A DNA stretch of 64,000 bases from Lachnospiraceae bacterium (GCA_017538995.1 JAFYHV010000162.1:849-64848), one strand, 5' to 3'; positions 36,854 to 63,376 are shown, numbered from the stretch's first letter. Numbers and translations: made by a program. The notes: a model not told the origin generated them from the sequence alone.

Positions 36854-36871
36854 TTTAATCACCTTCGTTTT

Positions 36872-37765: not shown

Positions 37766-37802
37766 TTTCCATTCCTCCTTTAAGTATTTCCCCTAAAATC
37801 AC

Positions 37803-40800: not shown

Positions 40801-40985
40801 TCCGCAATGGCGGTATCGGTCATGATTGTCGCAGGGTTTGAGTTGCAAAGAACAACCTCATAGCCTTCTTCCTTTAATGCAAGGCAGGCCTGGGTTCCCG
40901 CGTAGTCAAATTCCGCTGCCTGACCGATTACAATCGGGCCGGAACCTATGACAAGTACTTTTTTAATATCAGTTCTCTTGGACAT
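37803..40985 (-). CDS. carB: carbamoyl-phosphate synthase large subunit
   Basis: 1060 aa with duplicated ATP-grasp halves. N-terminus [24 protein letters not shown], and an MGS-like C-terminus. Confidence 0.95.
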
Positions 40986-41000
40986 TTTATTATCCTCTAA

Positions 41001-42116: not shown

Positions 42117-42141
42117 TCTTTATTCCTCATAAAAGTATTAA

Positions 42142-43551: not shown

Positions 43552-43563
43552 GATTAACTCCGA

Positions 43564-45213
<1,650 letters not shown>

Positions 45214-45235
45214 TTATTCAAGTTCTCGTTTTGCC

Positions 45236-47062
45236 TTATTCAACGGTAACTGATTTGGCAAGATTTTTTGGTTTGTCGATATCGCATTCATTTAACTTCG
45301 CAACATAATATGCAAGCATCTGAAGCGGTATAATTTCCACTGCGGCCGAGAAAAGCGTGTCGACCTTGGGAACGTAGATTACATCATTGGCAACTGATAC
45401 AATCTGATTATTTCCTTTGTATGTAAGTGCCAGCACGTCTGCGCCACGGGCCTTTACTTCAACGATATTGCTTAATGTTTTCTCCATTATCTTTTCGTTG
45501 TAACAAAGGGCGACTACAGGTCTGTGTTCCTCGATGAGTGCTATTGTTCCGTGCTTAAGTTCGCCTGCCGCATAGGACTCGGCGTGAATGTAAGAAATCT
45601 CTTTCATCTTAAGCGCACCCTCAAGGGCTATTGCATAGTCGGTATTTCTTCCGATGAAGAACATTGATTTGTTGTCGTAATATTTTATGGCAAGCTTGTG
45701 AATTTTGGAGTTGGTATCAATGGTTTCCTGTATCTTCTTCGGAAGTGCTTTAAGTGCTGTGAGGAGACGGTTGAATTCCTCGTCGCTTATGCTGCCGATT
45801 TTCTTTGCTGTATAAAGAGAGAAGAGATATAAAACAGCGAGCTGTGTGGTATATCCTTTCGTGGTTGCAACCGCAATTTCGGGACCTGCCCATGTATAAA
45901 GTGCATGGTCCGCAAGCTTTGCAATTGTACTTCCAACCACATTTACTATTGCTATTGTTTTTGCACCGCGGTTTTTGCATTCCTTCATCGCTGCAATCGT
46001 ATCGGCTGTTTCACCGGACTGCGAAAGCACAATTAAAAGTGTGTGCTCATCGATTAAGGGATCCGCATATCTAAGTTCACTTGCAAGTTCCGTGATAACG
46101 GGAACCCTGCAGAGTTTTTCAATTGTGTATTTTGCGGCACAGCCTGCGTAATATGCAGAACCGCAAGCGGTAATAACAATCTTGTTTACGCTTTCAAGAT
46201 ATTCTTTTGAAAGATCCGTTTCATCGAGTACGATTTCGCCTTCTTTGATTCTCGGTGCAATCGTTGCCTTAAAAGCACGGGGCTGTTCCATGATTTCTTT
46301 TAACATGAAATGCTCGTAACCGCCTTTTTCGGCTGCCTGAATATCCCATACGATTCTTGAGATTTTTTTGCTTACAGGCTGGAGTGCAACATCGAAAACT
46401 TTTATCTCTTCAGGAGAGATTTCTGCGAATTCTCCGTCCTCAAGATAGATGGCGTTTCTGGTGTATGAAACCAAAGCGGTAACATCCGATGCGAAGAAGT
46501 TTTCACCAACGCCCACTCCTAAAATAAGCGGAGAAGCTTCTCTTGCTACATAGAGTTTGTCGGGATCGTCCGCACAGATAACACCTAATGCATATGAACC
46601 CTGAAGTCTTGCGCTGGTTTTGATAACTGCTTTTTTGATGTCCCCTTTATAGTACATCTCAAGTAAGTGAACGATTACTTCGGTATCTGTTTCGCTTTCG
46701 AAATGATAACCTTTTGCGGTAAGCTCATCGTGAAGCGACATATAGTTTTCGATGATACCGTTGTGAACGATGGCAAATCTTCCGTCGTTACTCATATGAG
46801 GATGAGCATTGGTATCACTGGGTGCACCGTGTGTTGCCCACCTGGTATGACCGATACCGGTAGTACCGGGATAATCCTTACCGTCATTTGTTTTTTCACA
46901 GAGATTTGCGATTCGTCCCGTTACCTTGGCGATGGAAATTGTTCCGTCATTTATCAAAGCGATTCCTGCCGAATCATATCCTCTGTATTCAAGTTTTTTA
47001 AGTCCTTCAAGGAGTATGGGTGAAGCACCCTGAACTCCTGTATATCCAACTATTCCACACAT
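45236..47062 (-). CDS. glmS: glutamine--fructose-6-phosphate aminotransferase
   Basis: MCGIVGY N-terminus, two SIS domains, and a C-terminal KSVTVE. Confidence 0.95.
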   Translation of the reverse strand: MCGIVGYTGVQGASPILLEGLKKLEYRGYDSAGIALINDGTISIAKVTGRIANLCEKTNDGKDYPGTTGIGHTRWATHGAPSDTNAHPHMSNDGRFAIVHNGIIENYMSLHDELTAKGYHFESETDTEVIVHLLEMYYKGDIKKAVIKTSARLQGSYALGVICADDPDKLYVAREASPLILGVGVGENFFASDVTALVSYTRNAIYLEDGEFAEISPEEIKVFDVALQPVSKKISRIVWDIQAAEKGGYEHFMLKEIMEQPRAFKATIAPRIKEGEIVLDETDLSKEYLESVNKIVITACGSAYYAGCAAKYTIEKLCRVPVITELASELRYADPLIDEHTLLIVLSQSGETADTIAAMKECKNRGAKTIAIVNVVGSTIAKLADHALYTWAGPEIAVATTKGYTTQLAVLYLFSLYTAKKIGSISDEEFNRLLTALKALPKKIQETIDTNSKIHKLAIKYYDNKSMFFIGRNTDYAIALEGALKMKEISYIHAESYAAGELKHGTIALIEEHRPVVALCYNEKIMEKTLSNIVEVKARGADVLALTYKGNNQIVSVANDVIYVPKVDTLFSAAVEIIPLQMLAYYVAKLNECDIDKPKNLAKSVTVE

Positions 47063-47081
47063 AATTTTTCTCCGTTAATCC

Positions 47082-48617
47082 TTACTCCCATTCAACCGTT
47101 GCGGGGGGCTTGGAAGTAATGTCATAAACGACTCTGGATACTCCCTTGACTTCGTTGGTGATTCTGTTGCTTGCCTTGGCAAGTACTTCATAGGGAAGTC
47201 TGGTCCAGTCAGCCGTCATAAAGTCATCGGTAGTTACGGCACGAAGAGCAATTGTTACGCCGTATGTTCTGGCATCACCCATAACACCTACGGAATGAAC
47301 ATCGGTTAATACTGCAAAGTACTGGTTGGTATCTTTTTCAAGATTAGCGTTTGCAATTTCTTCTCTGAAAATTGCATCCGCATCCTGAAGCATTGCAACC
47401 TTATCTTTTGTGATATCGCCGATGATTCTTACTGCAAGTCCGGGACCCGGGAAAGGCTGTCTCCAGACTAGTTCTTTAGGTATGCCAAGCTTTGCGCCGA
47501 CTTCTCTGACCTCGTCTTTAAAGAGGTCTCTTAAAGGTTCGGCAATTGATTCGAATGATATGATATCGGGAAGTCCGCCAACATTGTGATGACTCTTAAT
47601 AACTGCCGAATCACCTTTGCCGCTTTCGATAACGTCGGGATAAATCGTTCCCTGTGCGAGCACATTTATTTTGCCGAGCTTCTTTGCTTCATCTTCAAAT
47701 ACACGGATAAATTCTTCGCCGATTATTTTTCTTTTTGTTTCGGGATCCGAAACGCCTGTGAGTCTTGATAAAAATCTCTCCTGAGCGTTTACTCTTATTA
47801 AGTTAAGTCCGAATTTGCCTTTGAAAGTCTGCTCAACAAAATCTGCTTCATTCTTTCTGAGTAATCCGTGATCCACGAATACACATGTTAAGTTGCTGCC
47901 GATTGCGTTGTGTAAAAGGAGAGCAACAACCGATGAATCAACACCGCCGGAAAGAGCAAGCAAAACTTTCTTGTCTTTTAATTCCTCACGGTATTTTTCT
48001 ATGCAGCTCTTTGCGAAGCTTTCCATCTGCCAGTCTGCAGAGCAGTTACAAACATGGAAAAGGAAATTGTATAAAACCTGTTTGCCGTATTCTGTATGTG
48101 TAACTTCGGGATGGAACTGAACTCCGTAAAGTTTTCTTGTTTCATCGCACATTGCGGCGTTGGGACATTTGTCGGTATAACCGATTCTTTTAAACCCTTC
48201 GGGAAGCTCACTTACGAAATCCGTATGGCTCATCCAGCAGATGCTCATTTCGGGAATATCCTTAAAAAGAATATTCTCTTCGAATGTCACCATTGTTTTG
48301 CCGTATTCACTTGAATTCTCTGCGCTTTCGACTTTTCCGCCTGCCATGTATGCCATAAGCTGGTCACCGTAGCAGATACCTAAAATAGGAACGCCTGCAT
48401 CTAACAAAGCAGGATCGTAGTGCGGTGATTTTTCATCGTATACGCTGTTGGGGCCGCCGGTAAAAATAATTCCGCTGTAGCCCGCATTTTTAATTTCTTC
48501 AACGGAGATTTTGTTGTAAGGCTTAATCTCCGAATATACATGATGTTCTCTGACACGGCGTGCGATAAGCTGATTGTACTGTCCGCCGAAATCGAGGACT
48601 AAAATCTTATCGTTCAT
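47082..48617 (-). CDS. guaA: GMP synthase (glutamine-hydrolysing)
   Basis: GICYGDQ GATase, [10 protein letters not shown]-loop, and a C-terminal TVEWE. Confidence 0.95.
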
Positions 48618-48619
48618 TT

Positions 48620-49894
48620 TTACCTCACAATGATGCTTTCACGCTCAGCACCTACAGAAACATATTTGATGGGACATTCGATTTCTTTTTCGATGAAGAG
48701 GACGTATTCTTTTGCTTCTTCAGGTAGATCTTCCCACTTTCTCACACCGGAAATATCACATTTCCAGCCCTTGAATGTTTTGATAACGGGCTTTGCATCG
48801 TTAAGCGCCATAGGGAAAGGAAAACGGTCTGTTTCTTTTCCGTCTACGATATATTTTGTACATACAGGGATTTCATCCATGTATGAAAGTACGTCAAGTT
48901 TGGTAAGTGCAATCTTTGTAGCGGCCTGAACTTCAACACCGTATTTTGTTGCAACGATATCGATAGGTCCGACACGTCTTGGACGACCTGTTTTTGCACC
49001 GTATTCAAAGCCTGCTTTTCTAAGCTCTTCAGCTTCGTCACCGAACATTTCGCATACGAAAGGTCCTTCGCCTACACATGTTGAATAAGCTTTTACAACA
49101 CCGATTACTTCATCAATCTTTGCTGCTGCATAACCCGAACCGATGGGAGCGAATGCTGCGGTTGTATTCGAAGAAGTGGTGTAAGGATAGATACCGTAAT
49201 CAAGATCACGAAGTGAGCCAAGCTGTGCTTCGAATAAAATCTGCTTGCCTTCTTTATGAGCATTCTTTAAGAAAAGACCTGTATCGGCAACAAAAGGTTT
49301 GATTCTTTCACAGTAATCGGAAAGCCATTTTTCAAGGTCTTCCATCGTAAAAGGATCAGCTCCGTATACTTTTGTTAATGTGAGATTTTTCCACTCAAGA
49401 AGGTCTGCAAGGTGAGACTTCAATTCTTCGGGATAGAAGAGTTCGCCTGCAAGAATTGTTTTCTTTTGATATTTGTCTGAATAGAAAGGTGCGATTCCCT
49501 GTTTGGTGGAACCGTATTTTTTGTCAGCAAGTCTTAACTCTTCAAGCTCATCCAGCTCGCGATGCCAGGGGAGTAAAAGAGAAGCTCTGTCGCTGATTTT
49601 TAAGTTTTCGGGTGTGATTGCAACACCTTTCGAAGTAACGTCTTCGATTTCTTTTAAGAGGTTCTCGGGATCGAGAGCCACACCGTTTCCGAGAATATTC
49701 ACTACACCGTCTCTGAATACTCCGGAGGGCAGAAGATGAAGTGCGAATTTTCCTTTGTCATTGATGACGGTATGACCTGCATTACCGCCGCCCTGAAAAC
49801 GAACTACAACATCATAATCCTCGGTCAGAAGGTCAACCATTCGGCCTTTACCTTCATCGCCCCAGTTGATACCGACAATTGCGCAATTTGCCAT
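48620..49894 (-). CDS. purA: adenylosuccinate synthase
   Basis: WGDEGKGR and GGGNAGHT motifs. The ATG at 49894 follows GGAGG; the track start at 49909 lies upstream of the RBS. Confidence 0.93.
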
Positions 49895-49917
49895 ATAAAA
49901 ATCCTCCAAAAAATCAT

Positions 49918-49974
49918 AAAAAAGAAGACAATGGGTCCTTAATGTTTTTACACATTAAAGACGCCATTGCCTTT
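49918..49974 (-). promoter_or_regulatory. leader attenuator of the purA operon: hexaloop hairpin overlapping an intrinsic terminator
   Basis: The RNA forms AAAGGC-AAUGGC-GUCUUU (49957-49974). A 19-bp alternative hairpin, GGCAAUGGCGUCUUUAAUGU / ACAUUAAGGACCCAUUGUC, is followed by UUCUUUUUU (49918-49971). Confidence 0.65.
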
Positions 49975-49984
49975 TCACCCGTCA

Positions 49985-50013
49985 AATATACTCTTTTTTT
50001 GCTTATTTGTCAA
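49985..50013 (-). promoter_or_regulatory. sigma-A promoter of the purA operon
   Basis: On the minus strand: TTGACA (50008-50013), a 17 nt spacer, then TATATT (49985-49990). Confidence 0.6.
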
Positions 50014-50020
50014 TTATTTC

Positions 50021-50057
50021 AAAAGAAAAAAGTTCACGCGTGAACATGAACTTTTTT
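50021..50057 (-). terminator. intrinsic terminator after asnB
   Basis: The minus-strand RNA is AAAAAAGUUCA..GUUCACGCGUGAAC followed by UUUUUUCUUUU. Confidence 0.7.
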
Positions 50058-50095
50058 CATATTAAGGAAGATTTTTATATGATGTTCGCCAATGT

Positions 50096-51676
50096 CTATT
50101 TTCCGCTGTCGCCATAGTTGGAGAGGGCTCTTGCGGAAGGATCGTTGACGTTGCATCCTTTCCAGGATTTGTTGGGCATCCAGAAGTCTACTATCATCTC
50201 AGCCTGGCCGGGATAGTATTTCTCAAAGATTTCCCTGTAAAGAAGCGATTCCTTGGTAAAAGGTCTCGCATGAGTATACGTCTGACTTAAAGCTTTAAAC
50301 TCGTCGTCGGTATACATTTTTTCTGCATATTCCTTTAAGTAGTCAACCATTGAATGGCCTACGGCATCGGAGAATGCAGCTTTCTCTCTGTAGAGAATAT
50401 CGTGAGGAAGATAATCGCCTTCAAAAGCATGACGAAGGAGATATTTTCCTTTTTTGTATTTGTTTAATTTGAGTTCGGGATCGATTGACATTACATATTC
50501 AGCAAAATCAAGATCGCCGAAAGGAACTCTGGCTTCGAGAGAGTTTACGCTGATACATCTGTCGGCACGAAGCACGTCGTACATGTGAAGCTCTCTGACA
50601 CGCTTTTTGGATTCTTCCTGGAATTCATAAGCGTTCGGAGCAAAGTCCGTATATTTGTAACCGAAAAGTTCATCGGAGATTTCACCTGTCAAAAGTACAC
50701 GAATATCTGTCTGTTCGTGAATTGCCTTGCAGAGAAGATACATACCCATGCTCGCACGAATTGTAGTGATATCGAACGTTCCTAAAAGATGTATTACATC
50801 TTCAAGTGAATTGATGACATCAGCGGGAGTCATGTAAACTTCCGTATGGTCGCTTCCGATATAGTTGGCAACTTCTTTCGCATATTTTAAATCGATTGCA
50901 TCCTCGGTCATACCGATTGCAAAAGTTCTGATAGGCTTATCGCTCTTCTTGGCTGCAATTGCACATACTAATGATGAGTCAAGACCGCCTGATAAAAGAA
51001 ATCCGACCTTGGCATCTGCGATAAGTCTTTTTTCAACACCTGCGATAAGTTTTTCACGAATGTTTGTACAGATAACATCGAGTGAATCGCTGTGCATTTC
51101 CTTAACTTCCGTCATATCACGGTATTTAATAAACTCACCGTTCTTGTAGTAATGTCCGGGAGGGAAGGGCATGATCTTATCGCATATTCCGACGAGGTTC
51201 TTTGCTTCGGAAGCAAAAAGAATTACGCCGTTTTTATCATATCCGTAATGAAGCGGACGGATTCCTATGGGGTCTCTCGCCGCGATATATTCATTGGTTT
51301 CTTTGTCGTATAAAATAAGGGCAAATTCGGCATCAAGCATTTTAAACATTTCTGTGCCGTATTCTTTGTATAAAGGCAAAAGGATTTCACAATCCGAATC
51401 ACTTTTAAATGTATAGCCCTTTTTAATAAGCTCTTTTCTTAAAGCTTCAAATCCGTATATTTCACCGTTGCAGACAACGTAGTTTCCGTCTAATTCAAAA
51501 GGCTGCATTCCGGCTTCCGTCAGACCCATGATGGAAAGACGCTGAAATCCGAGCAGACCATAACCCGTATCTATTATTTTCATTGCATCGGGACCTCTTG
51601 ATACGGTTTTATCCAGTCCCTTCTTTAGTACATCCTCATCTGCGCTCACGTCGCAGTAACCCATAATTGAACACAT
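50096..51676 (-). CDS. asnB: asparagine synthase (glutamine-hydrolysing)
   Basis: Ntn Cys in MCSIMG and the PP-loop SGGLDSS; 526 aa. Confidence 0.9.
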   Translation of the reverse strand: MCSIMGYCDVSADEDVLKKGLDKTVSRGPDAMKIIDTGYGLLGFQRLSIMGLTEAGMQPFELDGNYVVCNGEIYGFEALRKELIKKGYTFKSDSDCEILLPLYKEYGTEMFKMLDAEFALILYDKETNEYIAARDPIGIRPLHYGYDKNGVILFASEAKNLVGICDKIMPFPPGHYYKNGEFIKYRDMTEVKEMHSDSLDVICTNIREKLIAGVEKRLIADAKVGFLLSGGLDSSLVCAIAAKKSDKPIRTFAIGMTEDAIDLKYAKEVANYIGSDHTEVYMTPADVINSLEDVIHLLGTFDITTIRASMGMYLLCKAIHEQTDIRVLLTGEISDELFGYKYTDFAPNAYEFQEESKKRVRELHMYDVLRADRCISVNSLEARVPFGDLDFAEYVMSIDPELKLNKYKKGKYLLRHAFEGDYLPHDILYREKAAFSDAVGHSMVDYLKEYAEKMYTDDEFKALSQTYTHARPFTKESLLYREIFEKYYPGQAEMIVDFWMPNKSWKGCNVNDPSARALSNYGDSGK

Positions 51677-51752
51677 TTTTTAATCTTCCTTTAAAGTATT
51701 TTTAGGTGTCCGGCCCCCGCAGGAGTCGGACACCGATAAGTATTAAATATTT

Positions 51753-53519
51753 TTATTCAACGTCCTGAAGTGCATCGAAACCTTCTTCACCGGTACGAAC
51801 CTTTACAACGTTTTCAACGTCATATACAAAGATCTTTCCGTCGCCGATATGTCCGGTATAAAGGACTTTCTTGGCTGTTTCGATTACGTCTCTTACAGGA
51901 ACTGCACTGACTACGATATCTACCTGAATCTTAGGCAGTAAGTTTGCTTCAATCTGTACTCCTCTGTAGTATTCCGGTTTGCCCTTCTGTACGCCGCATC
52001 CTAAAACATGGGATACTGTCATACCGGTAATACCGAGTTTCATCATTGCTGTCTTCAAAGACTCAAACTTAGCTTCTTTACAGATGATCTCAACTTTGGT
52101 GTATTTATGTCCGTCGCCTGAGAATGTGGGCATTTTCTTAACTTCAACAGCTTCTGCAACGGGAGTGTCGCCTGTAACGGCAACAACCGGTTCGCCTTCT
52201 GCGCCTTCTTCGATATATTCGGGTAACATTGCAAATCCTGCATATGCCGAAGGAAGACCATGTTCTGTAGCATCAAGACCAGTTAATTCTTCTTCTCTTG
52301 ATACTCTTAAGCCAACGATGGCTTTGATAATAAAGAATGCGATTGTAATTGTAACTACGGTCCAGCCTGCTACCGATACGAAACCGAGTAACTGGATTCC
52401 TAAAAGCTTAAATCCGCCGCCGTAGAACAAACCTGCCATCTGAACACCGTTTGCATCTGCGATTGAATAACCGGGAGCCGAAGGAGTAGCGAATAAACCT
52501 ACAGCGATTGTACCCCAGATACCGTTCATACAGTGAACTGCTACAGCACCTACGGGATCGTCTATTCTTAAAACATAATCAAGGAACCATACACCGAATA
52601 CTACAAGTAAACCTGATACTGCACCGATGCAGACAGCGCCTGCACAGTCAGTTACATCACAGGGAGCTGTAATTGCTACCAAACCTGCAAGTGATGCGTT
52701 TAAGCACATCGAAACATCGGGTTTCTTATATTTGATCCATGTGAAGATCATACAAACAACCGTTGCAACAGCGGGAGATATGGTTGTTGTAAGGAATATA
52801 GATCCTAACTGAGGAAGGCTTGTTGCAGCCGCACCGTTGAAACCGTACCAGCCGAACCAGAGGATGAATACACCCAGAGCGCCGATTGCGATATTGTGGC
52901 CGGGGAAAGCGTTAACCTTAACGATCTTACCCTTTTCGTCTTTTGTGAATTTACCAATACGTGCACCAAGGATTTTTGCACCGATTAAAGCGGAGATACC
53001 GCCAACCATGTGAATTGCCGTGGAACCTGCAAAATCATGGAAGCCCAGTCCTGCAAGCCAGCCGCCGCCCCAGATCCAGTGAGCTTCGATCGGGTAAATC
53101 AAAGCCGAAATAACAGCTGAATAGATACAATATGATAAGAATTTGGTTCTTTCAGCCATTGCTCCGGAAACGATGGTTGCTGTAGTAGCACAGAATACCA
53201 GGTTGAAAACAAAGGATGAAAAATCAAAATTATCATATGATGTGAAGAGGTCAAATCCGGGTTTACCGATAAATCCGAATAAATCCTCGCCCATGAGCAA
53301 TCCGAAACCGATTGCTATAAATACTACGGTACCGATACAGAAGTCCATCAGGTTTTTCATGATGATATTTCCTGTATTCTTAGCCCTCGTAAAACCTGCT
53401 TCAACCATTGCGAAGCCTGCCTGCATCCAGAATACGAGAGCAGCACCGATAAGGAACCAAACTGAGAACACTTCGTTGGAAACTGCTTCTTTCACTGTCA
53501 TTAATAAAGTCTCATCCAT
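51753..53519 (-). CDS. amt: ammonium transporter fused to a C-terminal P-II (GlnB/GlnK-like) domain
   Basis: The Amt core has AGFAMVEAGF and about 11 TM segments. After a linker come ~110 aa with KVEIICKEAKFESLKTAMMKLGITGMTVSHVLGCGVQKG...GDGKIFVY, a P-II fold pattern. The ATG at 53519 is preferred because the 53528 ATG abuts the AAGGAG RBS. Confidence 0.85.
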   Translation of the reverse strand: MDETLLMTVKEAVSNEVFSVWFLIGAALVFWMQAGFAMVEAGFTRAKNTGNIIMKNLMDFCIGTVVFIAIGFGLLMGEDLFGFIGKPGFDLFTSYDNFDFSSFVFNLVFCATTATIVSGAMAERTKFLSYCIYSAVISALIYPIEAHWIWGGGWLAGLGFHDFAGSTAIHMVGGISALIGAKILGARIGKFTKDEKGKIVKVNAFPGHNIAIGALGVFILWFGWYGFNGAAATSLPQLGSIFLTTTISPAVATVVCMIFTWIKYKKPDVSMCLNASLAGLVAITAPCDVTDCAGAVCIGAVSGLLVVFGVWFLDYVLRIDDPVGAVAVHCMNGIWGTIAVGLFATPSAPGYSIADANGVQMAGLFYGGGFKLLGIQLLGFVSVAGWTVVTITIAFFIIKAIVGLRVSREEELTGLDATEHGLPSAYAGFAMLPEYIEEGAEGEPVVAVTGDTPVAEAVEVKKMPTFSGDGHKYTKVEIICKEAKFESLKTAMMKLGITGMTVSHVLGCGVQKGKPEYYRGVQIEANLLPKIQVDIVVSAVPVRDVIETAKKVLYTGHIGDGKIFVYDVENVVKVRTGEEGFDALQDVE

Positions 53520-53580
53520 ATTATTCATCTCCTTTGTAGTGATTTAACGAAGCAACCCCCCAATAAGTGTTCGTTAATTT

Positions 53581-55674
53581 TTATACTCCGAATAATAAAT
53601 CCGCATATGACGGGAACGGCCAGTATTCTTTGGATGTAAGTGTTTCAGCTTCATCACAAAGGGCTCTTAATTCCGCCATCTTGGGAAGAATCTTATCGCG
53701 AATCATACCGGATTCTTCGATAATGTCGCCTGCATTTGAAAGTGCAGCGATTTCATCCTTAAGTTCATCTGTCTTTGTATATGCTGCATCTGTAATAGCA
53801 GATAATTTCTTAACAAGACTGAGTTCGTATGAATCAGGAATGGAAGAACCGATGCTCTGCTTTAATGCAACTCTCTGAGCAAGGTCTCCGACATATTTGT
53901 CGATTGCGGGAGCAATCTGTGTCTTTGACATAACAACCATTGTATTAGCTTCGATTGTTACGCTCTTGCAGTAGTTCTCGAGCATGATTTCGCATCTTGA
54001 TTCAAGCTCTGCCTTGGAGAATACTCCGTGTTTTGTAAGCATTGTGACGTTCTTCTCATCAAGAAGGTGAGGCATACAGTCGGGTGTTGTCTTGTAGTTT
54101 GAAAGACCTCTTACTTCTGTAGCTTCTTTTACCCAGGCATCGTCATAACCGTTGCCGTTAAAGATAATTCTTTTATGAGCTTTAATAGTCTCTTTGATAA
54201 GAGCATGAAGATCATTTTCAAAATCTGATGATGCTTCAAGTTTGTCTGCGAAAATCTGAAGTGATTCTGCAACAGCTGAGTTAAGCATGATGTTTGCACA
54301 TGCGATACTGTTGGAAGAACCGAGGCTTCTGAATTCGAATTTATTGCCTGTAAATGCGAAAGGTGATGTACGGTTTCTATCCGTTGTATCCTTGCTGATA
54401 GGAGGAAGGATATCTACACCGAGCTGCATTTTCTGCTTAATCATATCTGTGTAAGGCTTGTCATTTTCGATGGCATCGAGTACTGCGTTGAGTTCGTCGC
54501 CAAGGAACATTGAGATGATTGCGGGAGGTGCCTCATTAGCGCCTAATCTGTGGTCGTTACCTGCGGTAGCAACTGCAAGTCTTAAAAGATCCTGATAATC
54601 ATCAACTGCCTTAATTACTGCACAAAGGAATAAAAGGAACTGTGCATTTTCATAAGGTGTAGCACCGGGTGACAGGAGGTTCTGTCCGAGGTTTGTGGAC
54701 ATTGACCAGTTGTTGTGCTTACCTGAACCGTTAACTCCTGCGAAAGGTTTCTCATGAAGGAGGCATACGAGACCGTGCTTAAGTGCTGTCTTCTGCATGA
54801 TTTCCATTGTTAACTGGTTGTGGTCTGTAGCGATATTTGTTGTCTCGTAGATAGGAGCAAGTTCATGCTGTGCGGGAGCAACTTCGTTATGTTCTGTCTT
54901 TGCGAAGATACCGAGTTTCCAGAGTTCTTCGTTAAGATCTTCCATGTATGCCGCAACTCTGGGTTTGATAACACCGAAGTAATGGTCATCCATTTCCTGA
55001 CCCTTGGGTGATTTGGAACCAAAGAGTGTTCTGCCTGTCATCTTAAGGTCGAGACGTTTGTCGTACATTTCTTTGGTTACAAGGAAGTATTCCTGCTCAG
55101 GACCAACCGATGTACGTACGTTTTTAACCTGATCGTTACCGAATAATTTAAGAATTCTCAAGCACTGCTTATTCAAAGCTTCCATGGAACGAAGAAGAGG
55201 AGTCTTCTTATCAAGTGCATGTCCGCTGTAAGAACAGAATGCTGTGGGAATACATAATGTTTTTCCTTTGATAAATGCGTAGGATGAAGGATCCCAGGCT
55301 GTGTAACCTCTTGCTTCGAAGGTTGCACGTAGGCCGCCTGAAGGGAAAGAAGATGCATCGGGTTCGCCCTTTATCAGTTCTTTTCCGGAGAATTCCATCA
55401 GCACGCCGCCGTCGGGAGCGGGAGAGATGAAGCTGTCATGCTTTTCAGCTGTAACACCAGTCATAGGCTGGAACCAGTGAGTATAATGTGTAGCTCCTTT
55501 TGCAACTGCCCATTCCTTCATAGCCTGAGCAACTACGTCTGCAACGCTCGGATCAAGAGGAGTGTCCTCGTCGATTGTTTTCTTTAATGATGCAAATACC
55601 TTTGCCGGAAGTACGGCTTTCATTGTTCTCTCGTCAAATACGAGACTTCCGAAAATATCATTAATCTGTGCCAT
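53581..55674 (-). CDS. glnN: type III glutamine synthetase
   Basis: 697 aa. It has a GSIII-type N-terminal extension and the NGSGKHNNWS motif. Confidence 0.9.
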   Translation of the reverse strand: MAQINDIFGSLVFDERTMKAVLPAKVFASLKKTIDEDTPLDPSVADVVAQAMKEWAVAKGATHYTHWFQPMTGVTAEKHDSFISPAPDGGVLMEFSGKELIKGEPDASSFPSGGLRATFEARGYTAWDPSSYAFIKGKTLCIPTAFCSYSGHALDKKTPLLRSMEALNKQCLRILKLFGNDQVKNVRTSVGPEQEYFLVTKEMYDKRLDLKMTGRTLFGSKSPKGQEMDDHYFGVIKPRVAAYMEDLNEELWKLGIFAKTEHNEVAPAQHELAPIYETTNIATDHNQLTMEIMQKTALKHGLVCLLHEKPFAGVNGSGKHNNWSMSTNLGQNLLSPGATPYENAQFLLFLCAVIKAVDDYQDLLRLAVATAGNDHRLGANEAPPAIISMFLGDELNAVLDAIENDKPYTDMIKQKMQLGVDILPPISKDTTDRNRTSPFAFTGNKFEFRSLGSSNSIACANIMLNSAVAESLQIFADKLEASSDFENDLHALIKETIKAHKRIIFNGNGYDDAWVKEATEVRGLSNYKTTPDCMPHLLDEKNVTMLTKHGVFSKAELESRCEIMLENYCKSVTIEANTMVVMSKTQIAPAIDKYVGDLAQRVALKQSIGSSIPDSYELSLVKKLSAITDAAYTKTDELKDEIAALSNAGDIIEESGMIRDKILPKMAELRALCDEAETLTSKEYWPFPSYADLLFGV

Positions 55675-55757
55675 ATTTATATTCCTCCGTTTTATTATTT
55701 TTGTTTTTATTTTTAATATTTTGAATACTTTTTATTTGGGATTTTTTATTATAGGGT

Positions 55758-55807
55758 AAAAGAAAAGACGCCTTAAATGTTTTAAACACTTAAGACGTCT
55801 TTGCCTT
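55758..55807 (-). promoter_or_regulatory. hexaloop hairpin plus intrinsic terminator between gdhA and glnN
   Basis: The RNA forms AAGGC-AAAGAC-GUCUU (55792-55807). A 15-bp hairpin AGACGUCUUAAGUGU / ACAUUUAAGGCGUCU is followed by UUUCUUUU (55758-55800). Confidence 0.6.
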
Positions 55808-55840
55808 TTATAATGGGTATATTATTTTTTTATTTATCGA

Positions 55841-57202
<1,362 letters not shown>

Positions 57203-57219
57203 TTAAAAATCTTGTGCAT

Positions 57220-57282
57220 AAAAGAAAAAGAGCCTTTAATGGATAAAGTAATACCACTTCCATTAAAGACGCCATTGCCTTT
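57220..57282 (-). promoter_or_regulatory. leader attenuator of gdhA: hexaloop hairpin overlapping an intrinsic terminator
   Basis: The RNA forms AAAGGC-AAUGGC-GUCUUU (57265-57282), identical to the purA copy. The terminator GUCUUUAAUGGA / UCCAUUAAAGGC is followed by UCUUUUUCUUUU (57220-57270). Confidence 0.65.
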
Positions 57283-57346
57283 ATCACATAATTTAATTGA
57301 CTATTTTTTGGAAAGGACTGTAAGTCGCTTTCGCTTCATGCATTGA

Positions 57347-57375
57347 ATACTACATCAGCAATTTTTGTTTGTCAA
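57347..57375 (-). promoter_or_regulatory. candidate sigma-A promoter of gdhA
   Basis: On the minus strand: TTGACA (57370-57375), a 17 nt spacer, then TAGTAT (57347-57352). Confidence 0.5.
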
Positions 57376-57420
57376 CACTTTTTTTGCAAAAAATATTTTC
57401 GAAAAAACCGAGTCGAATCC

Positions 57421-58071
57421 TTAGAATATGAATGTAGTGGTGTAAAGAGCCAGAACAAGTCCGGCCATTATTATGATAATTCCGATGACGGGAAAAATTT
57501 TTTCAGGCCCGGTAAGTTCACTGACCTGTTTGTTTCTGGTTGCAGGATTGGCAATCATTAAAACAATGCCGAGTAAGATGCAGAATGTTGCAACAATACA
57601 TAAAACAGACTGGAAACCGACGGTACAGTCTATCATTAAATACTGATCCGTATAACTTTTATAAAAGCCTTCGTAAGTTTTGGCATCCACGCTGTCGCCG
57701 AAAGTTCTGGAAACAGTAGTATCAACCGAGCGTACTTTTCCTTTTATAAGAACGGGAGTATTTTTGGATTTAAGACTTTTTGAAGCTCTTACAAAATAGA
57801 CAGCATTATTTTCATTGTCAGTTGCCGCATAGTAATATTCTTTTCCGGTCGGAATAAAACCGTAAGAGTTTGTTACTTCTCCGATATATGTAATATCATC
57901 TATTTCAATCTGAACATACTCGCCTTTATTTACAATTCTTTCTGCATCTTTTAGGGGAATGATTCCTGTGTAATGAATAATATTAAGAAACGCATTTATG
58001 ACATACGCCAGAAGGCCACCGCCGATTAAAATTATTGAAAGTATTGTCGAAACTATTTTTTTCTTTTCCAT
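57421..58071 (-). CDS. hypothetical membrane protein
   Basis: About 216 aa from the ATG at 58071 (GGGG RBS). One N-terminal TM, a soluble middle region, and two C-terminal TM segments. I recognise no family motif. Confidence 0.5.
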   Translation of the reverse strand: MEKKKIVSTILSIILIGGGLLAYVINAFLNIIHYTGIIPLKDAERIVNKGEYVQIEIDDITYIGEVTNSYGFIPTGKEYYYAATDNENNAVYFVRASKSLKSKNTPVLIKGKVRSVDTTVSRTFGDSVDAKTYEGFYKSYTDQYLMIDCTVGFQSVLCIVATFCILLGIVLMIANPATRNKQVSELTGPEKIFPVIGIIIIMAGLVLALYTTTFIF

Positions 58072-58310
58072 ATTTTTCCCCTTAAAAACAAAAAGCATTT
58101 TTGATGCGTTTGAAAAAATTTTCCCCTTTTACAGAAAAACAAACTCACAAAAATGTCTCTTTTATAATACAGTCTTTGTAAAAATATCTCAATGCTTTTT
58201 AAGAAATTTTTTTATTTCACCGACATATCGTGCGAATGCTTGACACTGCACCGAATAAATCAATATACTCAAATTGTATGAGGTGGTTATTTTATTGAAA
58301 GTGAATACTG

Positions 58311-58949
58311 ATGAAAAAAACTGATAATACAAAAAAATCAAAAATTTTATTTATCGGATTGCCGGTTCTTATAATTATTTTAATTGCATTGATTATCGTT
58401 AATTATTTTATCCTTCCGCCGAAAACTTCGGATAATGCAGCAAAGTATAAGTATTACGGTTATAATTTTTTACAGCTCAAATCCATCACTGATGATGAGG
58501 ATAAGGTGATAATAGAATTCGGTTCATTGAATTTCAATTTTAATTATTTCTTCAACAGAAATAAAATCGAATCTTCAGGTAACGATTTTGAATTTATCAG
58601 ATGGATTGGAAATTTTGACCCGTATTCCAATACAGAATCTTTTCCGGATTATTACATAATTTCAACACTGACATCCAATTATATGGTTATATCCAAAAGT
58701 CCGGAAATGAAAACCAAAGATTTATATAGCTTTAATTATGATATGGAATATCAGGATGTTACAATTCAATTGCGATTCTTCGAAAAATATGAAAACGCCC
58801 AAATATATATGAGCAAAGATTATATTAAAAACAATGAGATAAAAAAAACGGAGCAAAAAAAACAAGCTTATAACAGTTATGATAAAGAATGGAATTCTAT
58901 AGAAAAATATACTATTTATAATGGCGTTACCATAACTACCGAAGAATAA
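58311..58949 (+). CDS. hypothetical membrane-anchored protein, very AT-rich gene
   Basis: 212 aa. N-terminal TM (ILFIGLPVLIIILIALIIV), then an Asn/Lys/Tyr-rich domain. I recognise no motif. Confidence 0.45.
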   Translation: MKKTDNTKKSKILFIGLPVLIIILIALIIVNYFILPPKTSDNAAKYKYYGYNFLQLKSITDDEDKVIIEFGSLNFNFNYFFNRNKIESSGNDFEFIRWIGNFDPYSNTESFPDYYIISTLTSNYMVISKSPEMKTKDLYSFNYDMEYQDVTIQLRFFEKYENAQIYMSKDYIKNNEIKKTEQKKQAYNSYDKEWNSIEKYTIYNGVTITTEE

Positions 58950-58979
58950 TTTTTTCTTCAAAAAATAAAAATTTTTTTC

Positions 58980-59009
58980 TTGACAAGAAAATATTTGTGG
59001 GTGTATAGT
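58980..59009 (+). promoter_or_regulatory. sigma-A promoter of the glutamate synthase operon
   Basis: TTGACA (58980-58985), an 18 nt spacer, then TATAGT (59004-59009). Confidence 0.55.
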
Positions 59010-59015
59010 ACTCGC

Positions 59016-59074
59016 AAATGAGCAAAGGTGTTCGTTTAAACACACAGTGTTTGAATGAGCGCCTTTTTCTTTTT
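59016..59074 (+). promoter_or_regulatory. leader attenuator of the glutamate synthase operon: hexaloop hairpin overlapping an intrinsic terminator
   Basis: AAAUGAGC-AAAGGU-GUUCGUUU (59016-59037). A 20-bp alternative hairpin AAAGGUGUUCGUUUAAACAC / GUGUUUGAAUGAGCGCCUUU has only G-U wobbles as deviations, and is followed by UUUUUCUUUUU (to 59074). Confidence 0.65.
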
Positions 59075-59103
59075 GTTACAAAAATGAAAGGAAGATTTTT
59101 GTT

Positions 59104-60198
59104 ATGAGAATGGAAGGTGAAGTCAGAATTCCGTCCGGTTGTGCTATTGCGGCCGTTATCTCAAAAGACGGAAATAAAATGTCCGGCCAGAAAATATACG
59201 AGTGCATGAAACCCATGCATGATCGTTCCAACGGTCTCGGCGGTGGTTTTGCGGGCTACGGAATCTATCCGGACTATAAAGATTTTTATGCATTTCATAT
59301 GTTCTTCGATGACAGAAATACAAGAAAGTCATGCGAAGAATTTCTGAAGGAAAGATTTGAAATCGTCAAATCGGAAATCATTCCCACAAGAAAAATTCCG
59401 GCTATTACAAATGAACCGGACATATGGAGATATTTTGTCGCTCCGCTTAAAAGCCAGATGGAAAAAATGCAGGTCGACGAAAAGGAATTTGTTGCGAGAA
59501 GCGTAATGAAAATAAACACCGAAATGAAAGGTGCTTACGTTTTTTCTAGCGGCAAAAACATGGGCGCATTCAAGGCTGTTGGTTTCCCTGAAGACGTCGG
59601 AGTATTTTACAGACTCGAAGAATACGAAGGATATTCATGGACCGCACACGGCAGATATCCTACCAACACTCCCGGCTGGTGGGGCGGCGCACATCCTTTT
59701 ACACTGCTTGATTATTCAATAGTTCATAACGGCGAAATTTCTTCCTATGACGCGAACAGAAGATTTATTGAAATGTTCGGATATAAATGTAACCTCCAGA
59801 CCGATACCGAGGTAATTACATATATTATGGATTATCTTATAAGAGTTAAAGGTCTTACTTTAAATGAAGCTGCAAGCGTTATTGCAGCGCCTTTCTGGAG
59901 CACTATTGAAGGCAAGGAAAACATCGAAGAAAAAGAAAAACTTACATTCTTAAGAACAGTATTTCCTTCGCTCCTTGTAACAGGTCCGTTCTCAATTGTA
60001 TTCGGATTTAACGGCGGTCTCATGGCTCTTAACGACAGACTTAAATTAAGATCCATGGTTATCGGCGAAAAGGACGATAAGGTTTATATCGCCAGTGAAG
60101 AAGCAGCCATCAGATCCATGGAACCCGATGCGGAAAACATCTGGGCACCCGCAGGCGGCGAACCTGTAATTATTAAAGTAAAGGAGGGTGCATACTAA
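59104..60198 (+). CDS. glutamate synthase, class II glutamine amidotransferase subunit (GltB domain 1-like)
   Basis: The Ntn-type Cys lies in IPSGCAIAAV after a short propeptide. The pattern HGRYPTN..HNGEISSY is typical of archaeal-type split GltS. Confidence 0.8.
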   Translation: MRMEGEVRIPSGCAIAAVISKDGNKMSGQKIYECMKPMHDRSNGLGGGFAGYGIYPDYKDFYAFHMFFDDRNTRKSCEEFLKERFEIVKSEIIPTRKIPAITNEPDIWRYFVAPLKSQMEKMQVDEKEFVARSVMKINTEMKGAYVFSSGKNMGAFKAVGFPEDVGVFYRLEEYEGYSWTAHGRYPTNTPGWWGGAHPFTLLDYSIVHNGEISSYDANRRFIEMFGYKCNLQTDTEVITYIMDYLIRVKGLTLNEAASVIAAPFWSTIEGKENIEEKEKLTFLRTVFPSLLVTGPFSIVFGFNGGLMALNDRLKLRSMVIGEKDDKVYIASEEAAIRSMEPDAENIWAPAGGEPVIIKVKEGAY

Positions 60199-61703
60199 TG
60201 AGTATCAGATATGTATATCCTGAATTCGAAGTGGTACGAAACGAAAACCGATGCATCACCTGCAGGGTTTGCGAAAGACAGTGTGCCAACGAAGTTCATT
60301 CATATAATGAAGACAAAAAAGTAATGATAAGCGACGAAACAAAATGCGTCAATTGTCAGAGATGCGTATCGCTTTGTCCGACCAGAGCATTAAAGATAGT
60401 AAAGAGCGACTGCACTTTAAGAGAAAACGCCAACTGGCAGAACGATACCATAAAAGAAATATACAAACAGGCAGGAAGCGGCGGTGTGCTTCTTTCATCA
60501 ATGGGTAATCCCAAGCCCCTTCCCGTTTACTGGGACAAGATTTTAATTAATGCTTCCCAGGTTACAAACCCGCCCATCGATCCCTTAAGAGAGCCGATGG
60601 AAACAAGAGTATTCTTAGGTAAGAAAAATGCAGGTTTAGAGAGAGACGAGAATGGGAATCTTAAATGTGAATTATCTCCCCAGCTAGAACTTGCAATGCC
60701 TGTAATGTTCTCGGCTATGAGCTACGGTTCCATAAGCTACAACGCACATGCATCACTTGCAAGAGCAGCTACGGAGCTCGGAATCCTTTATAACACAGGT
60801 GAAGGCGGACTACACGAAGATTTCTATGTATACGGTCCCAACACTATAGTTCAGGTTGCATCAGGTAGATTCGGTGTACATGAGGATTATCTTGAAGCAG
60901 GCGCAGCTATAGAAATCAAGATGGGCCAGGGCGCAAAGCCCGGTATCGGCGGACATTTGCCCGGTGCCAAAATTGTCGGAGATGTATCGAGAACACGTAT
61001 GATTCCCGAAGGAAGCGATGCGATTTCTCCCGCTCCTCATCATGATATTTATTCAATCGAAGATTTAAGACAGCTTGTCTTTTCACTTAAAGAAGCTACC
61101 GATTATAAGAAACCCGTCATCGTAAAAGTAGCAGCGGTTCACAATATCGCAGCTATCGCAAGCGGTATCGCACGAAGCGGTGCAGATATCATTGCAATTG
61201 ACGGTTTCAGAGGCGGTACGGGCGCAGCTCCCACCAGAATCAGAGATAACGTTGGTATTCCTATTGAACTTGCACTTGCAAGTGTTGATCAGAGACTTCG
61301 TGACGAAGGTATCAGAAACAATGTTTCACTGGTTGTAGGCGGTTCAATAAGAAGCGCTTCGGACGTAATCAAAGCCATCGCACTCGGTGCAGATGCTTGC
61401 TACGTTGCAACTGCAGCTTTACTTGCACTCGGCTGTCACTTATGCCGTACATGTCAGAGCGGTAAATGTAACTGGGGTATCGCAACACAGCGTCCCGACC
61501 TTGTAAAGAGACTCAATCCGGATATCGGAAGCGAAAGACTTGTAAACCTTATGACTGCATGGCGTCATGAAATCATGGAGCTTATGGGCGGTATGGGTAT
61601 TAACTCTATCGAAGCACTTAAGGGCAACCGTCTGATGCTTCGCGGAGTAGGTCTTAACGAAAAAGAACTTGAAATCTTAGGCATTTCACATGCAGGAGAA
61701 TAA
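60198..61703 (+). CDS. glutamate synthase FMN/Fe-S subunit (GltB domain 2-like) with an N-terminal 2x[4Fe-4S] ferredoxin module
   Basis: CITCRVCERQC and CVNCQRCVSLCP motifs, then the GltS FMN domain (GEGG, KMGQGAKPGIGGHLPG, HHDIYSIEDL, DGFRGGTGAAP). TAATG overlap with the upstream gene. Confidence 0.88.
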   Translation: MSIRYVYPEFEVVRNENRCITCRVCERQCANEVHSYNEDKKVMISDETKCVNCQRCVSLCPTRALKIVKSDCTLRENANWQNDTIKEIYKQAGSGGVLLSSMGNPKPLPVYWDKILINASQVTNPPIDPLREPMETRVFLGKKNAGLERDENGNLKCELSPQLELAMPVMFSAMSYGSISYNAHASLARAATELGILYNTGEGGLHEDFYVYGPNTIVQVASGRFGVHEDYLEAGAAIEIKMGQGAKPGIGGHLPGAKIVGDVSRTRMIPEGSDAISPAPHHDIYSIEDLRQLVFSLKEATDYKKPVIVKVAAVHNIAAIASGIARSGADIIAIDGFRGGTGAAPTRIRDNVGIPIELALASVDQRLRDEGIRNNVSLVVGGSIRSASDVIKAIALGADACYVATAALLALGCHLCRTCQSGKCNWGIATQRPDLVKRLNPDIGSERLVNLMTAWRHEIMELMGGMGINSIEALKGNRLMLRGVGLNEKELEILGISHAGE

Positions 61704-61705
61704 TA

Positions 61706-62137
61706 ATGAAAAGAGTATATGTTAACGAAGAATGGTGTCTCGGATGTCACCTTTGCGAATATAACTGTGCATTTGCCAATTCAGGCTTAAGCGACATGGC
61801 AGAAGCACTCAAAGGAAAACAGATTTATCCCAGAATCCATGTCGAAGGCGATGAAAAAATTTCATACGGTGTATCCTGTCGTCACTGCGAAGATCCTATG
61901 TGCGTTAAGAGCTGTATAGCAGGCGCAATCAGCAAAGTTGACGGCGTGGTACAGATCGACAGAAGCAAATGTGTCGGATGCCTTACATGCGTTCTGGTAT
62001 GTCCTTACGGAGCACTTGCACCTTCGAAGGAAGGCACAATGCAGAAATGCGAACTCTGCCTCAAGAATTCCTGCGGAGAGCCCGCATGCGTAATAGGATG
62101 TCCAAACAAGGCCATAGTATATGAGGAAAGAGACTAA
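61706..62137 (+). CDS. 4Fe-4S dicluster ferredoxin-like protein
   Basis: 143 aa with several CxxCxxCxxxCP-like motifs (CLGCHLCEYNC, CVGCLTCVLVCP). Confidence 0.8.
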   Translation: MKRVYVNEEWCLGCHLCEYNCAFANSGLSDMAEALKGKQIYPRIHVEGDEKISYGVSCRHCEDPMCVKSCIAGAISKVDGVVQIDRSKCVGCLTCVLVCPYGALAPSKEGTMQKCELCLKNSCGEPACVIGCPNKAIVYEERD

Positions 62138-62141
62138 GATT

Positions 62142-63374
62142 ATGAGCAATTATTGTATTATCGGAAACGGTACCGCTGCAGTAGGCTGTATCGAAGGAAT
62201 AAGAAGCGTTGACCAGGAAGGTCAAATCACTGTAATATCCAAAGAAAACCATAAAGTTTACTCAAGACCGCTGATTTCCTACCTTCTCGAAGGAAAGACC
62301 GATGTCGAGAGGATGAAATACAGAAAAGATGACTTTTATGAGAGTGAAAAGTGTGTATTTTTACCCGGAACATCTGCTGTAAAAATCGACAAAGAAGGTA
62401 AAACGGTTGAAACTGACAAAGGAGAGAAAATTCCTTTTGACAAGGTTTGCGTGGCAACCGGTTCATCACCTTTCGTGCCTCCTTTTGAAGGACTCGATCA
62501 GGTTGAAAAGAAGTTTTCTTTTATGACTTTAGACGATGCGCTTTCATTAAAGGATGCGCTCACACCCGACTCAAAGGTACTTATAATAGGTGCTGGTCTT
62601 ATCGGTCTTAAATGTGCCGAGGGAATCAAGGACCTCGTAAAAGAAATCACAGTCTGCGATTTAGCAGACAGAATCTTATCGAGTATTCTCGACAGCGAGT
62701 GTGCAGCCATAATGCAGAAGCACCTCGAGGAAAACGGAATCAAGTTTATGCTTTCCGATTCGGCCGTAAAGTTTGAGAAAAACAAAGCTTACATGAAGAG
62801 CGGAGCAGAAGTTGATTTTGACGTACTCGTGCTTGCAATCGGTGTAAGAGCAAACATTTCGCTCATAAAAGATATCGAAGGCGAAGTTAACCGCGGTATC
62901 GTAGTTAACACAAAGATGGAAACATCCGTAAAAGATATTTATGCCGTAGGCGACTGTGCAGAAGGTTATGATTCATCAATTGGAGGAAACAGAGTCCTTG
63001 CAATTTTACCCAATGCTTATATGCAGGGCTTTACAGCAGGCGTAAACATGGCAGGCGGAGACAAGGAATTCACCAATGCCATTCCGATGAACTCAATCGG
63101 CTTTTACGGTCTTCATATTATGACTGCAGGCAACTACGACGGCGAATGCTTTGAAGAGAAGCGCGACGGCGTTTTGAAGAGATTTTTCGTAAAAGACAAC
63201 AAGCTTATAGGATACATGTTAATCGGCGAAACAGACAGAGCCGGAGTATACACATCCATGATCAGAGAACAGATTCCTCTTGATACGGTGGATTTTGAAC
63301 TTCTTAAAAAAGTTGCCACGACTTTTGCTTTTTCAAGTGAAAATCGTAGAAAAAAGTTTGGAGGTGTGGTATAA
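62142..63374 (+). CDS. FAD/NAD(P)-dependent pyridine-nucleotide oxidoreductase (electron-input subunit)
   Basis: IIGNGTAAVG (FAD) and IIGAGLIGLKCAE (NAD(P)) dinucleotide folds plus AVGDCA. The ATG at 62142 is preferred. Confidence 0.8.
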   Translation: MSNYCIIGNGTAAVGCIEGIRSVDQEGQITVISKENHKVYSRPLISYLLEGKTDVERMKYRKDDFYESEKCVFLPGTSAVKIDKEGKTVETDKGEKIPFDKVCVATGSSPFVPPFEGLDQVEKKFSFMTLDDALSLKDALTPDSKVLIIGAGLIGLKCAEGIKDLVKEITVCDLADRILSSILDSECAAIMQKHLEENGIKFMLSDSAVKFEKNKAYMKSGAEVDFDVLVLAIGVRANISLIKDIEGEVNRGIVVNTKMETSVKDIYAVGDCAEGYDSSIGGNRVLAILPNAYMQGFTAGVNMAGGDKEFTNAIPMNSIGFYGLHIMTAGNYDGECFEEKRDGVLKRFFVKDNKLIGYMLIGETDRAGVYTSMIREQIPLDTVDFELLKKVATTFAFSSENRRKKFGGVV

Positions 63375-63376
63375 AA

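Follow-up and report, generated by a model that had tools for sequence, protein, structure and literature searches.

The ANTAR-domain protein EutV of E. faecalis acts on two hexaloop hairpins that stand 5-12 nucleotides (nt) apart and are both required, and the sites that depend on it share the 13-mer AGCAANGRRGCUY (PMC3369931). Each ANTAR antiterminator that has been characterised works through two hairpins (PMC3369931; PMC12591593), and every target listed in a 2025 review of the family is a dual hairpin (PMC12591593). From the EutV-RNA structure, Walshe et al. (2022) put the minimal site at one hexaloop, and they ask that targets with a single hexaloop be studied both bioinformatically and by experiment (PMC8934654). 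ANTAR sites before genes for glutamine synthetase (GS), for glutamate synthase (GOGAT), for PII and for ammonium transporters were reported in many Firmicutes by Ramesh et al. (2012), together with a GS-ANTAR gene pair in Alkaliphilus (PMC3369931), and NitR of C. saccharobutylicum, an ANTAR protein encoded next to glnA, is reported to induce the GS/GOGAT genes on nitrogen limitation (PMC6316151). The control of nitrogen genes by ANTAR proteins is already established, and both the regulon and the mechanism class are known. Here we describe a 64,000-nt stretch of DNA from a Lachnospiraceae bacterium (GCA_017538995.1, JAFYHV010000162.1:849-64848; hereafter the window, to whose full length all positions refer), in which four leaders of nitrogen genes each carry one small C[AAnGRY]G hexaloop hairpin (loop in square brackets) overlapping an intrinsic terminator. 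We read the four elements as protein-dependent transcription attenuators of one nitrogen regulon, with a probability of about 0.78; what would be new in them is the single hairpin per terminator and a regulator whose receiver domain is non-phosphorylatable.

The hairpins, read on the transcribed strand, stand one in each of the purA, gdhA, glnN and glt leaders, and all four have 6-nt loops with A at positions 1 and 2 and G at position 4. Energies are given for the hairpin folded alone and bit scores for a covariance model of the hairpin (R1). In the purA leader, AAAGGC[AAUGGC]GUCUUU (49957..49974, minus strand; -4.5 kcal/mol, 26.8 bits) shares its loop and 3' arm with the 5' arm of the terminator (49915..49968, minus; stem-loop 49968..49930, U-run 49929..49915), which reaches -19 kcal/mol as a stem-loop alone and -28.2 kcal/mol within the whole leader. 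The promoter of this operon, TTGACA-17-TATATT (49985..50013, minus), has 11 of 12 consensus matches, and 10 nt separate its -10 box from the hairpin. The gdhA leader carries the identical 18-mer (57282..57265), which one extra U-A pair extends to UAAAGGC[AAUGGC]GUCUUUA (57264..57283, minus; -5.6 kcal/mol, 28.4 bits), with a terminator at 57220..57273 (minus; stem-loop 57273..57229, U-run 57228..57220). Its promoter (TTGACA-17-TAGTAT, 57347..57375, minus; 10 of 12 matches) leaves a leader of about 58 nt ahead of the hairpin. This arrangement is atypical, the gdhA attenuator of relatives usually standing directly after the promoter, and a further small hairpin, AAGCGAAAGCGACUU, with a GAAA/AAAG loop, lies in this leader at 57322-57336 (minus).

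The third hairpin, AAGGC[AAAGAC]GUCUU (55792..55807, minus; -3.6 kcal/mol, 23.3 bits), is intercistronic between gdhA and glnN and overlaps the glnN-leader terminator (55757..55802, minus; stem-loop 55802..55764 with 18 pairs, followed by a U-run). The glt leader, on the plus strand, has a hairpin of different stem sequence, AAAUGAGC[AAAGGU]GUUCGUUU (59016..59037; -6.5 kcal/mol, 23.5 bits), a terminator at 59024..59075 (stem-loop 59024..59066 with 20 pairs, U-run 59067..59075) and a promoter, TTGACA-18-TATAGT (58980..59009; 11 of 12 matches), whose -10 box is separated from the hairpin by 6 nt. A preliminary description of this DNA, made from the sequence alone, had placed all four hairpins with their A1, A2 and G4 loops and the promoters at 49985-50013 and 58980-59009, and each of these was recovered where it had been proposed. 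It had also counted four transcription units; the number of attenuators stands, but there are only three promoters and three transcription units in the window, the glnN copy being intercistronic. The first minus-strand unit runs from gdhA through the attenuator to glnN, amtB-glnK, asnB and a terminator at 50052..50020, and glnN therefore lies behind two attenuators in series.

In each leader the minimum-free-energy fold is the terminator, which re-pairs 15-20 of the 16-22 hairpin nucleotides and whose 3' arm repeats the sequence of the small hairpin's 5' arm, so that the mutual exclusion of the two structures, as well as this repetition, agrees with what had been proposed. The hairpins alone reach -3.6 to -6.5 kcal/mol, against -25 to -30 kcal/mol for the complete leaders folding as terminators, and enforcing the small hairpin in the folding leaves only a residual A/U-rich hairpin of 5-9 bp that is detached from the U-run. 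With so weak an antiterminator facing so strong a terminator, termination is expected to be the default and a factor would be needed to hold the small hairpin. In the mechanism that we propose, the nascent leader would by default fold as a strong intrinsic terminator and transcription would end before the first gene. When nitrogen (probably sensed as glutamine) is scarce, a NitR-type ANTAR protein would bind the C[AAnGRY]G hairpin co-transcriptionally, this hairpin being predicted to form first, at or within a few nt of the transcript 5' end. The bound hairpin would keep its loop and 3' arm (GUCUUU or GUUCGUUU) from the 3' arm of the terminator, and RNA polymerase would read through the remaining short A/U-rich hairpin, which would lie well upstream of the U-run. 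Responsiveness to nitrogen is suggested by the gene content and by the NitR literature.

The conservation of the element was examined in 80 loci around relatives of GlnN (63-78% identity, mostly Clostridia), the closest of which, at 78% identity, come from metagenome-assembled genomes of Clostridia and from Merdimmobilis. A rule scan required a C[AAnGnn]G hairpin with 4 or more pairs and a U-run-bearing terminator that takes up its loop and 3' arm; it returned 102 copies in 1.40 Mb, that is, in 81 sequences (the 80 related loci and the window). Block shuffles gave 0-1 copies, and 0-2 were obtained with eight alternative loop definitions as degenerate as this one; a chance origin of the element is excluded. 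In an unbiased tally of hexaloops overlapping terminators, AAAGGC (43), AATGGC (10) and AAGGGC (6) prevailed and no unrelated loop exceeded 5; the hexaloops enriched in the relatives are all AAnGRn. Loop position 5 is a purine in 93/93 distinct copies, although the search did not impose it. The genes that follow are almost exclusively nitrogen genes, as the preliminary description had expected of a scan of relatives: 94 of the 102 copies stand directly 5' of glnN (40), the first glt gene (22), amtB (11), gdhA (8), pyrG, gltSynth, asnB, glnA or purF. Within the window the covariance model found exactly four matches of 23-28 bits and no further copy, the next score being 12 bits; the four had been in the training set, so that the informative part of this result is the gap in bit score. 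No known riboswitch or leader could be assigned to the window either: a search of its whole length against Rfam 15, including the glutamine riboswitches and the T-box, gave 0 matches at gathering thresholds, and an E-value search of 49800-59200 returned only noise with E above 1.

Cultured relatives that have the motif include Merdimmobilis hominis, Mediterraneibacter agrestimuris, Ruminococcus flavefaciens and Clostridium thermocellum. In many relatives glnN or gdhA is preceded by a tandem of two complete attenuators, 65-110 nt apart and each equipped with a terminator of its own (for example, by locus and position, L001 7701+7766, L002 9770+9877, L005 9812+9892, L010 9829+9918 and L012 5437+5517). 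The gdhA leader of the window together with the intercistronic copy forms a similar serial arrangement for glnN.

The trans-acting factor is very probably an ANTAR protein, to judge from the loop consensus and from the genes linked to the element. The preliminary description had noted that no ANTAR or other RNA-binding regulator gene lies in the window. For ANTAR genes this is literally true, a phmmer search of the window with an ANTAR domain being negative, but it is misleading for the genome: metagenome contig ERZ27256909 k141_799522, which is 99.82% identical to window 43581-64000 and whose Pyr_redox_2 protein differs from the window copy by 3 residues, extends past the window end. Both here and in a second contig (L083), the glt operon goes on with GXGXG, glnA, an ANTAR gene and a strong terminator. 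The glnA gene encodes a 402-aa type I-alpha GS (window-equivalent 64164-65372, plus; L084 13967-15172), and the ANTAR gene, last of the glt-glnA operon and starting about 1.4 kb past the window end, encodes a 194-aa regulator (window-equivalent 65430-66014, plus) with a clear match to ANTAR (Pfam PF03861) and a faint one to Response_reg. Directly 3' of it lies the terminator (L084 15816-15845, the glnA-ANTAR pair occupying L084 13967-15817). Neither attenuator copies between GXGXG, glnA and the ANTAR gene nor a strong promoter inside the operon were found, and the regulator therefore appears to sit behind its own target and to depend on its read-through. Basal read-through of the glt attenuator would supply the regulator and give rise to positive feedback. 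A 9-bp G+C-rich hairpin without U-run separates the GXGXG gene from glnA (L084 13911-13935) and is terminator-like on the opposite strand.

The same linkage recurs in the relatives. A search for ANTAR-domain proteins, as the preliminary description had advised, found an ANTAR-domain open reading frame (ORF) of about 200 aa within 10 kb in 30/80 related glnN loci. The gene is directly 3' of glnA in 26 of the 27 labelled loci, usually in the order glt-glnA-ANTAR and often followed by pyrG. The RNA motif was found by the rule scan in 22 of these 27 ANTAR-labelled loci, and by the covariance model in 4 of the other 5. The best PDB matches of the protein are Rv1626, AmiR and EutV. Aligned with EutV, the regulator conserves the RNA-contact residues K149 and E160 and has His in place of Y164, as in AmiR (read against PMC8934654). 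Its family comprises at least 7,773 clusters at E <= 1e-5, which carry in the sources only the names "ANTAR domain-containing protein" or "response regulator NasT", and no dedicated NCBIfam model exists for it. A second, different ANTAR-domain ORF, lacking the Ser-Ala/Asn signature described below, is found near glnN in three loci (L032 1145-1696, L046 1146-1697 and L070 14555-15148).

That the elements act as RNA is indicated by their stems, whose covariation had been the argument of the preliminary description for an RNA element over a DNA operator and still supports that choice. Among the 93 distinct copies, pair 5-18 is AU in 56, GC in 27, GU in 6 and CG in 4, and pair 6-17 is GC in 49, AU in 37 and CG in 5. 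The covariation score is 0.526, against 0.266 +/- 0.016 for shuffled and 0.10-0.20 for slid arms, in copies that were selected for at least four inner pairs, so that the pairing of those four is partly built in; the two pairs outside the required four, which were unforced, still form in 81% and 67% of copies. Pair 7-16, adjoining the closing C-G, is G-U in 58/93 copies; such a pair would not match in a DNA palindrome and is therefore a feature of RNA, not DNA. It is thus highly improbable that no RNA switch exists and that we are dealing with inverted-repeat DNA operators, or with ordinary terminators pairing by chance with an A-rich upstream flank. A-tracts are common upstream of terminators and do pair with the U-run in predicted folds, and the element overlaps the +1 region, where repressors frequently bind; yet conservation is highest in the loop, at the centre of the repeat, contrary to what a typical operator shows; 43 of the 102 copies lie without a promoter between genes or in tandem; and the enrichment over shuffles is about 100-fold and specific to the AAnGRn loop. 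If the element is an RNA switch, the hairpin might be recognised by something other than an ANTAR protein, such as a PII/GlnK-type protein, GS itself or, riboswitch-like, a ligand such as glutamine. The conserved part, a hexaloop with its closing pairs, offers too little for a ligand pocket and matches no Rfam family, and the loop consensus is that of ANTAR sites. The absence of an ANTAR gene from the window itself and from the fetched DNA of 29 motif-bearing loci would favour such a factor, which we nevertheless regard as unlikely, given that the same strain and 26 further loci have an ANTAR gene within the regulated operon, and given the co-occurrence of the gene with the RNA motif in related loci.

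Whether ANTAR recognition here involves one hairpin or two can be judged from the promoters. A near-consensus TTGACA-17-TATAAT promoter accompanies 59 of the 102 copies, with 5-14 nt (mode 8-9) between the end of its -10 box and the hairpin. This places the start of the hairpin near +1 to +3 and leaves no RNA for a first hairpin (P1) ahead of it. A scan for A1/G4 hexaloop hairpins of at least 3 pairs within 45 nt upstream found them in 7/102 copies (7%), compared with 12.2 +/- 3.2 in shuffled upstream sequence, so that P1 is not enriched. The same scan recovered the canonical P1 in 7/10 (70%) of the terminator-overlapping eut sites, with linkers of 1-14 nt, in control loci fetched with an EutV fragment. 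In these, P1 begins 6 nt after the -10 box, which is the place taken by the single hairpin in the nitrogen leaders (for E. faecalis-type eut loci, see L090 7460-7500 and 6191-6230). The single-hairpin design may thus be P1 and the second hairpin (P2) merged into one. A second A1/G4 hairpin downstream, inside the terminator, occurs in 16/102 copies (9.3 +/- 2.9 in shuffles), a weak and inconsistent excess. A canonical dual-hairpin substrate, whose P1 was missed because it is degenerate or because the true starts lie further upstream than the predicted promoters, would accord with all characterised ANTAR antiterminators, with the roughly 58 nt available in the gdhA leader, where a small hairpin lies at 57336..57322, and with the failure of the scan at 3/10 eut control sites. 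The loop of that gdhA hairpin is not an A1/G4 hexaloop, however, and with the promoters and the P1 counts as they are we consider this explanation quite improbable. A single-hairpin ANTAR variant, the first of the options raised in the preliminary description for an antitermination regulon with one hairpin per leader, is favoured by the loop match, the ANTAR gene and its linkage to glnA. Several points nonetheless weigh against protein-dependent attenuation by such a variant, besides the selection of the covarying copies: transcription starts were placed by promoter consensus only; the ANTAR gene was observed in a near-identical metagenome contig and not in the window; and 29 of 51 motif-bearing related loci have no ANTAR gene within the DNA fetched, where it may lie elsewhere in the genome. 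In addition, deletion of P1 abolishes EutV-dependent antitermination and induction (PMC3369931), and NasR binds P2 alone weakly, at about 12 uM (PMC7496416). From such weak binding by EutV and NasR it follows that a single hairpin would need a protein of higher affinity or extra contacts.

The regulator also departs from classical response regulators. Compared with Rv1626, the receiver of the window relative has Ser/Ala in place of E20/D21 and Asn in place of D65. Among 31 aligned ANTAR proteins (30 locus ORFs and the window relative), the phospho-Asp position is Asn in 23 and Asp in none, and the conserved Lys of the receiver is kept in most. The phospho-acceptor of REC-ANTAR response regulators such as EutV and Rv1626/PdtaR is therefore lacking, the regulator would not be a phosphorylated response regulator and its activity must be set otherwise. 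Control by a partner protein is the most plausible way by analogy with related systems, and the adjoining type I GS is the leading candidate for this role, as a working hypothesis. This GS is of the B. subtilis I-alpha type, with 7tdv and 4lnf as best PDB matches, and keeps the catalytic motifs. The 402-aa protein lacks about 11 aa internally, is short at its C-terminus and scores 344 bits against the NCBIfam GlnA model, whose cut-off is 429 bits. It may be partly regulatory, the genome also having a type III GS (glnN). In Bacillus, the I-alpha GS contacts TnrA and GlnR directly and so conveys the glutamine status to them. C. thermocellum shows the same adjacency of glt cluster and glnA (Clo1313_2031-2036), and a title cited in PMC9888227 states that deletion of this glnA "deregulates nitrogen metabolism". 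Taken further, and as a tentative idea that is more likely wrong than right, gut and rumen Clostridia may hold a very large ANTAR subfamily that brings about antitermination through a single 5'-end hexaloop hairpin without P1, is not phosphorylated and is switched by contact with a co-encoded I-alpha GS, which would sequester it when glutamine-bound and feedback-inhibited. If true, the circuit would correspond, at the RNA level, to the GS-TnrA/GlnR system of Bacillus and would govern ammonium assimilation together with the main glutamine-consuming biosynthetic enzymes.

Of the described systems, NitR resembles this one in the ANTAR gene directly 3' of glnA, the GS/GOGAT targets, antitermination and its occurrence in a member of the Clostridia. 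The gene order glt genes, glnA, ANTAR is found in both near-identical contigs (L083/L084), and attenuators precede the glt operon in 22 copies. The regulon here differs in that it adds gdhA, glnN (GS III), amtB-glnK and asnB, as well as an operon of nine genes for enzymes that consume nitrogen donors. The site described here on the RNA is a single hairpin at the transcript 5' end. With EutV/EutW of E. faecalis the element shares a hexaloop with A1, A2, G4 and R5, the C-G closing pair, the overlap with the 5' arm of the terminator and a first hairpin about 6 nt after the -10 box. In the core (A/G)GC-AAnGG(C/U)-GU(C/U), the closing pair and loop positions 1-5 (AAnGR) match the EutV 13-mer, whereas loop position 6 is mostly C instead of R and the second pair is G-U instead of G-C. 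The proteins likewise agree in having a REC-like domain, a coiled coil and an ANTAR domain, with the RNA-contact Lys and Glu conserved. They differ in that EutV is activated by phosphorylation of Asp54, which is Asn here, the acidic pocket being absent, and in that EutV stacks a Tyr on G4 where the protein here has His. The leaders, with one hairpin each, also lack the P1 and P2 with short linker of Ramesh et al. (2012), where EutV sites need both; functionally the element would belong with the ANTAR antiterminators, yet it falls outside the published two-hairpin RNA motif.

AmiR/AmiC of Pseudomonas aeruginosa and NasT/NasS offer ANTAR proteins with an unphosphorylated receiver-like domain, whose activity is set through sequestration by a co-encoded ligand-sensing partner protein, and AmiR has His at the G4-stacking position, as here. 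In contrast to these systems, the adjoining gene here encodes a GS and not a periplasmic-binding-protein-type sensor, and the regulon comprises several operons instead of one. The GlnR/TnrA-GS circuit of B. subtilis governs the same kind of regulon, and the GS beside the ANTAR gene is of its I-alpha type. GlnR and TnrA, which are of the MerR type, bind DNA and exert their control at promoters, whereas the control proposed here would be antitermination at the RNA level.

The 102 copies in 81 sequences form a large natural set of single-hexaloop ANTAR-type attenuators, and the element, as yet uncurated, appears to be widespread as an RNA element among gut and rumen Clostridia. In the literature searched, outside which the primary NitR paper lies, we found no paper describing single-hexaloop ANTAR sites in transcription attenuation. 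The set bears on a conflict between genetics, by which both hairpins are needed, and the EutV-RNA structure, by which one hexaloop is minimal (PMC8934654), and these leaders would be ready-made test substrates for the single-hexaloop question. Searches for ANTAR targets usually rely on dual-hairpin covariance models, which probably overlook a major class in Lachnospiraceae, Oscillospiraceae and relatives of these. Together with the linkage to glnA, the non-phosphorylatable receiver suggests that abundant bacteria of gut and rumen sense their nitrogen status by a route not yet explored.

The genes under control were assigned in the window by Pfam. The purA attenuator precedes nine minus-strand genes with gaps of 2-37 nt, all behind it, in the order purA-guaA-glmS-pyrG-purF-carA-carB-dapF-aminotransferase (35669..49894), which include most of the glutamine-amidotransferase and nitrogen-donor-consuming enzymes of the cell. 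Relatives group genes of this operon around the glnA-ANTAR pair; pyrG, for example, is directly 3' of the ANTAR gene in L027, L030, L033, L052 and L076. The unit with two attenuators comprises gdhA, which encodes an NADP-type glutamate dehydrogenase (55841..57187, minus), and then glnN (type III GS), an amtB-glnK fusion and asnB (50096..55674, minus), which end at the terminator mentioned above. On the plus strand, the split glutamate synthase operon contains GATase_2, Glu_synthase, Fer4, Pyr_redox_2 and the start of GXGXG (59104..64000) and runs off the window end. Between the gdhA and glt promoters lie two ORFs without Pfam match, at 57421-58098 (minus, 225 aa) and 58311-58949 (plus, 212 aa), both of which have hydrophobic N-terminal segments and are kept in the near-identical contigs; considered as regulators encoded in the window, they were rejected, since they look like membrane proteins. 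Finally, the ammonium transporter and the PII (GlnK) domain are fused in a single 591-aa ORF (51753-53528, minus).

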